Notes: generated from the sequence alone by a model not told the origin. DNA of 64,000 nt from Gammaproteobacteria bacterium (GCA_028868515.1 JAGWUI010000010.1:29860-93859); one strand, 5' to 3'; positions 35,458-38,612 are shown, counted from the first letter of the stretch. Program-made: numbers and translations.

Positions 35458-37125
35458 TTATGGATATGTATCTTCAACGTATGGATTAATCTTGTAATGC
35501 ATCATTATTTCATCAATTTCTTGTTCCGATAATTTCGGCAAACAAGCCAAAGCTGATTGATTTAAAGATAAACTTTCCCAGTCCCATTTCTCTTTATATT
35601 TTTCTATAAGCTCAATCGACCAAGGTATAGCTTCATTCCTACATAATTCCTCCCAATGCCAAAGTACCTTATCATATAAATAATCGTCAACTGCACTAGT
35701 TTCAATCAATCTCGCATTCTCGTTTTCTTCAAGCACGTTAATAGAATCAATCAGCTCAATAGACCACGACAAGGCTTTATTCTGAGATAATTTTCCCCAA
35801 TCCCATCTATCATAATATTTTTCGATAAATTCTACAGACCACGGCAAGGCTTTATTTCCAGATAACTCTTCCCAGTCCCATTTATCCAGATACATTTCAA
35901 TGAGCTCTTTAGACCAAGGCAGGGTTTCATTCCAAGCTAAAGCCCCCCAACACCATTTATCCAGATACTTTTCAATAAGCTCTATAGACCAAGGCAAAAC
36001 TTTACTCTTAGATAGATAACCACTACGTGCCGAACCATGATTTTTTTTATAGTAAAACTTGTCTGATTTGTTAGATAAAAGACCCCAACACCACTTATCC
36101 TTATATTTCTCAATAAACTCTATAGACCATGGTAAAGCTTCATTCCTAGATAGCTCTTCCCAATCCCATTTTTCTTGATATTTTTCAACGAACTCTATAG
36201 ACCATGGTAAGGATTCATTCAGTGATAAAAATGACCAATCCCACTTACCCTGATATTTTTCAATAAGCTCTATTGACCACGGAAAGGCTTTATTCCTAGA
36301 TAAAATACTCCACCAGTCCACTTCGCAATAGGGATCGCTATCGCACAACATATTATTATATTTTTCAATTAGATATATTGACCATGGCAAGGTGTTATTT
36401 TTAAATATCTCCCCCCAACTCCATTGATCTTGAAATCGCTCAATAAACTCAAATGACCACGGCAAAGCTTCATTATTCGATAAACAAGTATCACTAAAAT
36501 CACTCACATAATCATTCTGCCAACTTGTATCGCCACGCTCCCACCACGAAGGACTCCAACTCCACCTATCCTGATATTTCTCAACAAGCTCTATAGACCA
36601 TGGCAAAGCTTTGTTGCTAGATAAATCATCCCAATGCCATTTATCCTTATATTTCTCAATAAGCTCTATGGACCATGGCAAAGCTTTGTTGCTAGATAAA
36701 GCTACCCAATCCCATTTATCCTGATATTTTTCAATCAGCTCTATGGACCATGGTAGAGTTTTGTTCCTAGATAGTTCTTTCCAATTCCATTTATCTTGAT
36801 ATTTTTCAATAAACTTTATGGACCATGGTAGGTTTGTATTCTCAGAAATTAATGATAAGCAGCTTACTGGTTCATCTTTTTCAAAATCATACTCTCCAAA
36901 TCTGGACTGAAATTTATCGATTAACACCTCATACATACACACGCTATAAAAAAGAAAAGGTTTTACTTTATAAAATCTGATACTTTTTAACAGCTCAACA
37001 AATCGTCGCTGCTCTATATTTTGAGTTAACTGTGAAATGATCGACAGTTGCATGCTTGCAGCAGTAATCTGCACAGGTAAATGATTCCCGGCAATCACTA
37101 AAGATTTGTTTTCATCATCCTGCAT
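35458..37125 (-). CDS. Cargo protein B: 555-aa protein of ~14 tandem 25-26-aa Trp-rich repeats (consensus ALPWSIELIEKYQDKWDWEELSRNE), unknown family
   Basis: Visually obvious periodicity in the translation, with matching nucleotide-level tandem repeats (e.g. 36588-36740). The start overlaps the stop of the upstream HKD-J gene (ATGA), indicating translational coupling. Confidence 0.75.
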   Translation of the reverse strand: MQDDENKSLVIAGNHLPVQITAASMQLSIISQLTQNIEQRRFVELLKSIRFYKVKPFLFYSVCMYEVLIDKFQSRFGEYDFEKDEPVSCLSLISENTNLPWSIKFIEKYQDKWNWKELSRNKTLPWSIELIEKYQDKWDWVALSSNKALPWSIELIEKYKDKWHWDDLSSNKALPWSIELVEKYQDRWSWSPSWWERGDTSWQNDYVSDFSDTCLSNNEALPWSFEFIERFQDQWSWGEIFKNNTLPWSIYLIEKYNNMLCDSDPYCEVDWWSILSRNKAFPWSIELIEKYQGKWDWSFLSLNESLPWSIEFVEKYQEKWDWEELSRNEALPWSIEFIEKYKDKWCWGLLSNKSDKFYYKKNHGSARSGYLSKSKVLPWSIELIEKYLDKWCWGALAWNETLPWSKELIEMYLDKWDWEELSGNKALPWSVEFIEKYYDRWDWGKLSQNKALSWSIELIDSINVLEENENARLIETSAVDDYLYDKVLWHWEELCRNEAIPWSIELIEKYKEKWDWESLSLNQSALACLPKLSEQEIDEIMMHYKINPYVEDTYP

Positions 37126-38612
37126 TATGCTGCTCCATCTTTAAGTTGCTGCTGTAGCTGTTGTATTTGTGTACTTAATTTAGCAAGTTCCGCATCCAAA
37201 TGTTGGTTCTGCCTTATAAAATAACCGTGCCACTCTTCTTCATCTTTCCCTGCGGATTGCATCAATCGTACAGCTTCACTATGCTGCAACAACTGTAATT
37301 CCGATATTAATTGAGCCATTCTATATTTAATTTCTGCAATCGCTGATGTGAGTACCTCAACCTTACTCAAGGTCGTTGCACGAGTTTGGCTAAAGTCACC
37401 GGTGCTAATTCGCTCATAAATCTGATTGATTTGTTTAAGATCATTATTTTTATAGGCATCTTGCAAGGCAATAAAGACCTCATGAGCAAATTCTTTTTTA
37501 TCTTCAGGGACTTTATCTGGATGGCAGAGATTACAAGCTTTTCGATATAAGGACTTGAGTTCCTTTTCCTGTTCTTTATCCAGTTCTGGAACAGGAGCCT
37601 CATGCTGTAATTGCTCATGCTGCTTAGAGTATTGACGATAAGTATTCTCTGCTGCATCGGCTTCTTCTATAGCAACCCTAACTTCCTCTTCAGCATCATC
37701 AGTTTGAAAAAGCTCTTGTTCTAAATTTTTCTTCTTAAGTTCAGTAACTAAATTCGCAAATGAAACACGAGTCTTGAGTAGCTCTTGGATAGCATCTCCT
37801 AACATTTCATCATAGCGTCGATTAAAAACTATCAAACAACGTTCAATTTCAGTTTTTTCATTGCTTAAAGATTCAAGCCTTAATTCCAATACTTGTAATT
37901 GAAATTGCAAGCGTGGAATTTCTTGCGCTTCTACAGAAACCAATGCAGTAAATTTGCTTAAAAAATGATTTATTTGTTCAAGTGCATTTTGATACAGTCC
38001 CTGATTTAAGGAATCAATAATTGACCCAAGTTTAAGTTGTTCTGAAAATGGAGAAAGTTTTTTAATCTGTAAGCTAATGTCTTCATGCTCATCTAATAAG
38101 ATGAGGTTACGAATCATCTCTAATCTGCGTTTGATCGAATCGGTATTGATAGAGCTTGATGGTATATCCCCATCAACTCTGGCAGTTAGTTCCTGAAAAA
38201 CGTCAAGATATTGCAAAGCGAATTTTTCAGAATCATACAGAATCGTGATATTTTCGTCATTACTGCGAGCTTTTTTACTCCAGTTATAAGACCCCGTAAT
38301 CACCGTTTTATTATCTATTACACAGAATTTATGATGCATTGTTGGTGTGTCATAACCACTCGCTGGCACAAAAGTGACACTTCCACCTAAGTTTTTTAAC
38401 CGATTAAAATTAAGCCGACCAACACCTTGATTAATTTCATCTTCAATTAAAACAATAGATACTTGAACGCCCTGTTGAGCCTTTTTGCACAATACATCAA
38501 AAATATCGCTGTCTGTAAACCATGCGACAGCAGCAACAATCCGAGAATCTGCGGTTTCTAATTGTTTAATAATAACTTTATGAATATTTGCAAAGTAGGC
38601 TTTGACTTCCAT
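37125..38612 (-). CDS. Cargo protein A: single-HKD phospholipase-D-family nuclease domain + long coiled-coil + J-domain (HPD) fusion
   Basis: 495 aa. HHKFCVIDNKTVITGSYNWSKKA is the H.K....D......GS.N HKD motif. Residues ~230-340 form a heptad-rich coiled-coil. KELKSLYRKACNLCHPDKVPEDKKEFAHEVFIALQDAYK matches J-domain helices II-III with an invariant HPD. Confidence 0.75.
   Translation of the reverse strand: MEVKAYFANIHKVIIKQLETADSRIVAAVAWFTDSDIFDVLCKKAQQGVQVSIVLIEDEINQGVGRLNFNRLKNLGGSVTFVPASGYDTPTMHHKFCVIDNKTVITGSYNWSKKARSNDENITILYDSEKFALQYLDVFQELTARVDGDIPSSSINTDSIKRRLEMIRNLILLDEHEDISLQIKKLSPFSEQLKLGSIIDSLNQGLYQNALEQINHFLSKFTALVSVEAQEIPRLQFQLQVLELRLESLSNEKTEIERCLIVFNRRYDEMLGDAIQELLKTRVSFANLVTELKKKNLEQELFQTDDAEEEVRVAIEEADAAENTYRQYSKQHEQLQHEAPVPELDKEQEKELKSLYRKACNLCHPDKVPEDKKEFAHEVFIALQDAYKNNDLKQINQIYERISTGDFSQTRATTLSKVEVLTSAIAEIKYRMAQLISELQLLQHSEAVRLMQSAGKDEEEWHGYFIRQNQHLDAELAKLSTQIQQLQQQLKDGAA

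Follow-up and report, generated by a model that had tools for sequence, protein, structure and literature searches.

A Nuc-like nuclease joined to a divergent J-like segment, with a tagged partner on a small genomic island: a possible defence module

Why would a bacterial protein join a nuclease domain to a chaperone-type J-domain, and what would such a protein work with? The question is raised by a gene at positions 37125-38612 (minus strand) of a 64,000-nucleotide stretch of DNA from a Gammaproteobacteria bacterium (GCA_028868515.1, JAGWUI010000010.1:29860-93859), which was analysed at its full length and is called the window below; positions are counted from its first letter. The gene product, here termed the hub, carries a phospholipase D (PLD) nuclease domain with a single HKD signature and a segment built around the HPD tripeptide that is typical of J-domains. 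An initial annotation had described this fusion. It had overlooked the partner gene next to the hub, an N-terminal tag carried by the variable partners of related hubs, and the setting in mobile and defence islands. Partner, tag and island context together make the locus a multi-component module instead of a curious fusion protein. Our tentative reading is that it is an undescribed sensor-plus-nuclease defence module that would borrow the host DnaK through its J-domain.

The two halves of the hub protein

The hub is encoded by an ATG-to-stop open reading frame (ORF) of 495 amino acids (aa). Its parts, with the methods that define them (AF2, AlphaFold2), are as follows.

37125-38612, minus: hub gene, encoding in this order the PLD(HKD) nuclease, the long helices, the J-like domain and a helical domain at the C-terminus (ORF, Pfam, AF2)
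38169-38612, minus: Nuc-like PLD domain, aa 1-148 (AF2 alpha/beta domain, Foldseek)
38277-38336, minus: single HKD signature HHKFCVIDNKTVITGSYNWS, aa 93-112 (translation)
37602-38144, minus: linker helices at aa 157-203, then two longer helices (aa 207-299 and 305-337) that form a hairpin or coiled coil (AF2 secondary structure)
37404-37577, minus: J-like domain, aa 346-403, with helix II, HPD loop (37515-37523), helix III and helix IV; canonical helix I missing (Pfam, PDB sequence search, hhalign, AF2 fragment)
37131-37364, minus: C-terminal helical domain, aa 417-494 (AF2, conservation, kept in PLD-less relatives)

The AF2 model of the whole protein, calculated on 38 homologues, has a mean pLDDT (predicted local distance difference test) of 78. 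Both motifs named in the initial annotation were found as described: HHKFCVIDNKTVITGSYNWS fits the pattern HxK(x)4D(x)6GSxN and occurs in one copy in the hub protein, and the HPD tripeptide (aa 364-366) lies within LYRKACNLCHPDKV...EFAHEVFIALQDAYK. The NCBIfam search returned NucT-type nucleases for one half and, weakly, DnaJ for the other. Since Pfam and NCBIfam both recover the two halves, the joint occurrence of HKD and HPD is real and no chance motif match.

In the nuclease half, Pfam PLDc_2 matches the hub at aa 14-142 (E=9.7e-23) and is found in 78 of 78 relatives, with values between 1e-23 and 1e-26, and the HxKx4D motif occurs exactly once per protein in all 80 loci compared. H93, K95, D100, G107, S108 and N110 of the motif are invariant in the alignment of 78 sequences. 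The AF2 model of aa 1-148 shows the PLD alpha/beta fold, Foldseek agrees, and structurally the nucleases Nuc, NucT and Zucchini come closest. By motif, copy number and fold this half of the hub belongs to the Nuc-like single-HKD clade. Single-HKD chains such as Nuc and Zucchini are active only as homodimers. By analogy the active site of the hub, whose nuclease activity is predicted, would also require a homodimer. Nuc, NucT and Zucchini resemble the hub in having one signature per chain with the motif residues intact; they are stand-alone domains of ~150-200 aa, whereas the PLD domain of the hub makes up the N-terminal quarter of a 495-aa chain that also contains long helices and a J-like domain, and the hub has a partner gene.

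A coiled coil of ~110 residues had been proposed between the two domains. A helical spacer is indeed present, but it comprises ~200 aa, of which aa 207-337 are modelled as a helix of 93 residues (aa 207-299) followed by one of 33 residues (aa 305-337). The long helical region gives weak keratin/filament matches, and judging from the model it may be the dimerisation element of the HKD domain.

The J-like segment needs a more careful weighing. Pfam DnaJ (PF00226) matches the hub with E=8.7e-6 and 26.2 bits at profile positions 13-51 of 63, that is, over helix II, the HPD loop and helix III, and 73 of the 78 relatives match it individually at E<=0.01 (best 5.4e-8). A search of the C-terminal 153 aa against PDB sequences gave 29 matches, nearly all of them J-domains, including DNAJB2 (3e-4), DNAJB8, Sec63, auxilin, Sis1 and DNAJA1; the family profile returned J-domains again. 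In hhalign, the profile of the segment from 81 family members aligned to seven canonical J-domains with a probability of 96.4% and E=1e-9 over DnaJ positions 17-67, i.e. helices II to IV. HPD is retained in 78 of 80 loci at an overall identity of 30-65%. In the alignment of 78 sequences H364, D366 and L383 are invariant and P365, R357, F380 and A386 are conserved to at least 90%, with Y356 and Y387 below 90%; in a closer set of 38, Y356, F380, L383 and A386 are invariant and R357 and Y387 reach at least 90%. According to hhalign, Y356, R357, K358, F380, A386 and Y387 correspond to DnaJ Y25, K26, R27, F47, A53 and Y54; K358 is on neither list of conserved residues. The AF2 model of the isolated aa 338-410, based on the family alignment, has a pLDDT of 82 and three helices (aa 346-362, 370-388 and 392-403) with HPD in the first loop, corresponding to helices II, III and IV in length and order.

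Three results speak against the assignment. The hub stays 1.6 bits under the Pfam DnaJ gathering score of 27.8; canonical helix I was left unaligned by hhalign; and none of the 76 Foldseek matches of the aa 338-410 model in the PDB was a J-domain, the matches being designed three-helix bundles and SCIN proteins (best E=0.45), although short all-helical queries are hard for Foldseek. In other words, the HPD loop and the helix II/III core of the J-domain named in the initial annotation are kept, and structure prediction left its J fold unconfirmed. On sequence grounds we treat the segment as a divergent J-domain without helix I. The invariant H364 and D366, together with the conserved P365, R357, F380 and A386, form a pattern that is hard to explain without Hsp70 contact. 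The J-domain would be a candidate for recruiting the host's housekeeping DnaK. Housekeeping DnaK is the presumed target because no dedicated Hsp70 recurs among the flanking genes of the related loci, where no neighbour other than the partners is found in more than 7 loci.

The segment had been placed near the C-terminus. It is in that part of the protein but not at its very end, as ~90 helical residues lie beyond it, with the C-terminal domain at aa 417-494. In this domain L421, W461 and L472 are conserved to at least 90% (n=78), and it may be the docking site for the partner tag described below.

The tagged partner, the family and the island

The gene that follows the hub has these features.

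35458-37125, minus: partner gene (555 aa); its start codon and the hub stop codon share bases (ATGA) (ORF)
37018-37116, minus: N-terminal tag of the partner, aa 4-36, DENKSLVIAGNHLPVQITAASMQLSIISQLTQN (translation)
35551-36855, minus: 25-aa repeat in fourteen copies (75-nucleotide period; consensus LSxNkaLPWSIELIEKYqDKWdW)

The partner is translationally coupled to the hub. A scan found promoter-like sites less often than in shuffled sequence, and between hub and partner it revealed no terminator. The partner of the window has no match in Pfam, NCBIfam, PADLOC or the PDB; an LRR-like or an alpha-solenoid fold would be conceivable. A homologous partner with 25-aa repeats lies downstream of the hub in 30-32 related loci, and the repeat copy number differs among these homologues of 282-728 aa. 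Elsewhere the gene adjoining the hub, upstream or downstream, is of another type. Examples from the related loci (L numbers) are listed here.

L050: TPR (tetratricopeptide repeat) protein, 784 aa
L054, L033: WD40 propeller
L037, L025: LRR (leucine-rich repeat) protein
L064: WG-repeat protein
L070: Fib_succ_major protein
L079: PrimPol and DEDDh exonuclease

Most of these otherwise unrelated partners have in common a similar N-terminal stretch of ~30 aa, roughly N-x-x-L-[VI]-P, 8-10 residues, V-x-x-x-[LI]-x-I-T-x-K-[LI]-L. A hidden Markov model (HMM) of this tag was built from 22 N-termini and run against 908 ORFs of the related loci. About 60 proteins scored below E=0.01, every match was N-terminal, and all of these proteins are encoded on the strand of the hub and adjoin either the hub or another tagged gene; no non-adjacent ORF among the 908 fell below E=0.1, the best such value being 0.65. 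At least one tagged neighbour is present in 47 of 74 loci, and more than one in 4. The loci without a tagged neighbour are mostly truncated contigs or belong to the vWA/TerY group described below.

Two or three tagged genes surround one hub in some loci (L070 8479-11923, L063, L061, L080, L040), as in L070, where a third tagged ORF accompanies two tandem Fib_succ_major proteins. Such loci may be arrays from which alternative partners are drawn. At L002 (11443-13521) a partner of the 25-aa-repeat type ends in two C-terminal HRDC domains. HRDC domains bind nucleic acids, a hint of direct DNA or RNA contact in the case of some partners.

The initial annotation had called the domain combination unusual. 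This holds with respect to the searched literature, and it does not hold in the sense of a singular event, as the protein belongs to a large conserved family. A protein search returned 727 hub homologues, of which the best 120 are all full-length at 52-66% identity; in the sources they are named only as 'DUF1669/PLD-like domain-containing protein'. When one genome was scanned per species, 468 genomes contained relatives, including those of Pseudomonadota, Bacteroidota, Desulfobacterota, Cyanobacteria (a cyanobacterium), Chloroflexi and also Ignavibacteria. An exhaustive search with aa 150-495 alone gave matches that group into 1013 clusters when cut at 50% identity, and for 569 clusters the match has E<=1e-10. 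One pair of hubs, L023 and L024, has equal length and equal identity to the query, and the partner N-termini are identical. The two loci were assigned to a 'bacterium' and a 'Nanoarchaeota archaeon' metagenome-assembled genome of the same study, and the archaeal assignment is probably a binning artefact.

The module composed of the long helices, the J segment and the C-terminal domain also occurs without the PLD domain. It is found as a stand-alone protein of ~310 aa, behind an N-terminus of ~190 aa that lacks known identity, or with leucine-rich repeats (P0229, 903 aa) or ankyrin repeats (P0258, 746 aa) fused to it at the C-terminus. A PLD-less relative of 389 aa on an Enterobacter plasmid, annotated as 'molecular chaperone DnaJ', adjoins Hcp and a polymorphic toxin. 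Such PLD-less or alternative architectures are exemplified by the proteins P0134, P0150, P0229, P0258 and P0245 and by the loci L086 (8025-9194) and L087-L090. The PLD-less relatives and their following genes were read from contigs of 1-2.5 kb, and these hubs likewise precede tag-like N-termini. Because they keep the tagged partner, the nuclease can be regarded as dispensable to the module, whose core function may be something other than nucleic acid cleavage; as far as the compared sequences go, the conserved core is the J-hub plus the tagged partner. The shared tag, together with the relatives in which LRR or ankyrin repeats are fused to the J module, argues for a physical complex of hub and partner in which the tag would serve as an address label.

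The pair lies in a region that has the organisation of a GInt (genomic island with three integrases). Its further components are listed below.

44251-44739: ssb, directly beyond the ginABCD-like operon
44248-44260: candidate attL TTTTTAAAACGGT, overlapping the ssb stop codon (12/13 direct repeat)
38765-44095, minus: ginABCD-like operon of three tyrosine recombinases and a 137-aa protein (overlapping ORFs, Pfam)
42812-44095, minus: tyrosine recombinase, 427 aa (Phage_integrase 1e-13)
41194-42819, minus: tyrosine recombinase, 541 aa (Phage_integrase 5.5e-10)
39171-41201, minus: tyrosine recombinase, 676 aa (Phage_integrase 0.1)
38765-39178, minus: 137-aa protein, last ORF of the operon
35341-35353: candidate attR TATTTAAAACGGT; the island's AT-rich 3' end comes next, at 35354-35457

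GInts are reported to be inserted at the 3' end of ssb, to carry their cargo, which can be as little as 2.5 kb, directly after ginD, and to end in a short AT-rich stretch, with imperfect direct repeats of 10-17 nucleotides as flanks; a weak Phage_integrase match is described for GinC (PMC5385486). In the window the ginABCD-like operon is at one end of the island and the cargo runs from ginD onward. The 12/13 repeat between 44248-44260 and 35341-35353 is, taken alone, only marginally above chance. Two more pairs of short repeats were noted near the island ends: ATAATACTTAACA (44219) and AAAATACTTAACA (35444) make up one pair, TTAGGGATATG (44199) and TTATGGATATG (35458) the other. The GC content drops to 0.36 over 36-38 kb. 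We conclude that 35341-44260 (~8.9 kb), with the hub-partner pair as its sole cargo, is apparently a complete minimal GInt.

Related loci have comparable surroundings. One homologue lies in an integrative and conjugative element (ICE) beside transfer genes, a TacAT toxin-antitoxin pair, an AAA_15/21 ATPase and a Type I HsdR; another, in an integrase-bounded island, adjoins SRAP and SNase genes, and a third adjoins an SNF2 helicase of 1117 aa. In five loci (L035, L041, L059, L068, L083) the hub is followed, with overlap, by a TerY-P triad and DUF4407. The example of L035 (10001-16257) comprises TerY vWA, PP2C phosphatase, Ser/Thr kinase and DUF4407, and the PADLOC scores of the triad are 6e-48 for TerY, 6e-10 for PP2C and 1e-49 for STK_OB. 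A long pAgo (2e-261) lies directly upstream of the hub in L035 and L041. The triad genes were not found among the ORFs of the window (Pfam). In line with a defence setting, 148 flanking genes match 245 PADLOC families at 1e-8, as compared to 6 for the 34 housekeeping ORFs of the window. The PADLOC families matched by flanking genes include Type I restriction-modification, pAgo, mad2, PDC-S01 and Type II methylases, and Pfam adds SIR2_2, nSTAND3, PIN, HSDR_N and N6_Mtase.

A proposed mechanism, its rivals and known systems

We propose that the locus is a two-gene, horizontally mobile conflict module, most likely directed against phages or plasmids. The hub would pair with a second copy of itself, probably through the long helical region, so that two Nuc-type single-HKD domains form one active site; each copy would also bring a class-C J-domain and the conserved C-terminal helical domain. 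The partner would dock on the hub by its ~30-aa N-terminal tag and expose its variable repeat domain as a target-recognition surface. The J-domain would recruit housekeeping DnaK, and ATP-driven remodelling would be the switch that releases or assembles the nuclease dimer. The trigger could be an encounter of the partner with its target, or the diversion of DnaK during infection. Nuclease activity, the pairing of hubs, the binding of the tag, the recruitment of DnaK, the way in which regulation works and the defence function itself are all inferred. There are precedents for single steps: bNACHT25 senses phage through DnaJ (PMC12169576), AtcJ brings DnaK to operon-encoded partners by a short motif (10.64898/2026.09.07.749886), and chaperone-thresholded conflict systems have been described by Kaur et al. 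(PMC7159879). A bolder generalisation, which we regard as doubtful, is that the family is a so far unrecognised class of prokaryotic immune modules without an NTPase (nucleoside triphosphatase) of their own, in which a built-in J-domain would borrow DnaK as the ATP-driven trigger, the tag would plug many sensors into one hub, the PLD effector would be optional, and the state of the chaperone network would be wired into the immune decision.

In addition to the weak points of the J assignment given above, several results count against a nuclease-based defence module. Many relatives without a PLD domain still keep the tagged partner. The models of PADLOC 2.0 recognise the hub only via generic PLD similarity, which is expected if the system is new and equally so if it does not serve defence. 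The tag HMM detects no tag in the TerY partners, despite their N-terminal extension of ~36 aa. The enrichment of PADLOC matches among flanking genes has a small control (34 genes) and counts families instead of proteins. Ordinary metabolic or housekeeping genes also flank many loci according to Pfam.

The best surviving alternative is that the pair maintains its mobile element or competes on its behalf. The nuclease would act in addiction, in the exclusion of rivals or in the processing of transfer DNA, the partner would inhibit it or give it specificity, and the task of the J-domain would be to help in folding the complex or taking it apart. This would suit a pair that is the only cargo of a GInt, as GInt cargo often contains addiction modules (PMC5385486), as well as the homologue that lies in an ICE by transfer genes and TacAT. 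The plasmid relatives of the PLD domain are also overwhelmingly conjugative: 2077 of the 2235 plasmid records that match this domain are on conjugative plasmids, annotated as nuc or PLD family. On the other hand, no full-length homologue was found by tblastn among 72,556 plasmids and 50,697 phage records, only partial matches to the PLD domain or the J module, and megablast of the locus against plasmids gave no match. Moreover, the diverse ligand-binding repeat partners, several per locus, suit target sensing over an antitoxin role, and the operonic link to TerY-P and the adjacency of pAgo point to immunity. We consider the maintenance of a mobile element unlikely for these reasons.

It is also conceivable, in keeping with the stability option of the initial annotation, that the J-domain serves only the folding or stability of its own protein, with DnaK acting in cis to keep an aggregation-prone coiled-coil nuclease soluble and with no signalling involved. 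The ~130 residues of long helices that adjoin the J segment in the AF2 model would fit such a task, and J-domains are able to target Hsp70 to their own polypeptide, as class C J-domain proteins can do (PMC10410713). We judge this improbable, since the helical-J module and the tagged partners are conserved as a unit even where the PLD domain is missing, and the module is also fused to repeat sensors, which favours the handling of partners over self-folding. In the least probable reading the HPD segment is a helical scaffold of J-like type whose contact with Hsp70 has been lost, in a protein that is a coiled-coil Nuc-family nuclease with a repeat partner; the sub-threshold Pfam score, the alignment limited to helices II-IV and an AF2 fragment resembling generic three-helix bundles without a J-domain among its Foldseek matches are consistent with it. 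Against it speak the retention of HPD in all but two of the 80 loci, although overall identity is as low as 30-65%, the invariant H364 and D366, the conservation of P365, R357, F380 and A386, and the PDB sequence matches that are almost exclusively J-domains.

The sensor-plus-nuclease module that we tentatively favour can be compared with several known systems. AtcJ-AtcC-DnaK of Shewanella and HscB-IscU likewise have a specialised J-protein whose gene neighbours that of the client or adaptor, with a short motif connecting the two proteins, and class C J-proteins share with the hub an HPD loop between a basic helix II and helix III. Unlike in AtcJ and HscB, the J-domain of the hub is internal, lacks helix I, has a marginal Pfam score and is fused to a nuclease, and in place of a fixed physiological client it has partners that are encoded on mobile islands and belong to hypervariable kinds of repeat protein. 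Defence modules that combine a repeat or STAND sensor with a nuclease, and the chaperone-thresholded systems (the MoxR-vWA ternary systems, and GAP1-N2 with Hsp70/DnaJ; PMC7159879), show the same combination of a conserved hub or effector with swappable TPR, WD40 or LRR parts; they also have the mobile carriage, the defence-gene neighbours and the chaperone-type NTPase regulator proposed here. In contrast to these systems, the module encodes no NTPase, and the ATPase would come from the host via the J-domain; its partners are marked by a short N-terminal tag and not by a Death-like adaptor domain. The eukaryotic Sacsin combines a J-domain and a domain of a nuclease family (HEPN) in one polypeptide (PMC3710099), but it is a giant, unrelated protein with another nuclease fold and no tagged partner genes.

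PLD-containing defence proteins to which the hub can be likened are DISARM DrmC, Mokosh MkoB/C and Dpd DpdK, and weak PADLOC matches to DrmC (2e-11), MkoC (2e-7) and DpdK (2e-5) concern the PLD domain alone. Membership in these systems was rejected, as DrmA, DrmB and the methylase, the MkoA RNA helicase and the dpd cluster are absent from the island. Nor is the locus a TerY-P system, whose core genes are likewise missing from the window. The searched literature, which included a census of ~280,000 J-domain proteins, contained no description of a PLD-J fusion, of the partner repeat or of the tag.

If the family does serve defence, it would be a widespread one with a novel regulatory logic, in which housekeeping Hsp70 is recruited and no STAND, AAA+ or GTPase switch of its own is present. 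It would join two observations that have so far been separate, i.e. that phages both depend on DnaK/DnaJ and perturb them and that bNACHT25 needs DnaJ. The tag suggests a general plug-in mechanism for the exchange of sensors, and it offers a sequence handle for finding further partners and effectors. Even if its function is not defensive, a conserved nuclease-J hub whose clients are addressed by a tag would stand for a novel type among the specialised J-proteins of bacteria.

Other features of the window

Three further regions of the window were noted. On the plus strand, the 666-aa ORF at 50303-52303 has a TIR domain at aa 94-243 (PADLOC PycTIR 1e-11, TIR effector 2e-10) and a patatin-like phospholipase domain at aa 394-631 (5e-10), and may be a separate single-gene defence candidate; the GC content is 0.39 at 52-54 kb, just downstream of it. 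Divergent from ssb, the 948-aa ORF at 46480-49326 (plus strand) matches PADLOC mad3 (5e-101) and mad8. Its position and size suggest that it is the housekeeping UvrA, an ABC ATPase, so that the PADLOC matches would be false positives and the ORF no defence gene. At 30247-33137 on the minus strand, a 734-aa SPFH/Band-7 protein with an internally repeated N-terminal region stands beside a 111-aa protein with an H-NS C-terminal domain. This pair sits between a gspN-like gene of the type II secretion system and PHI-1-like and DsbC genes, and could mark another accessory region.

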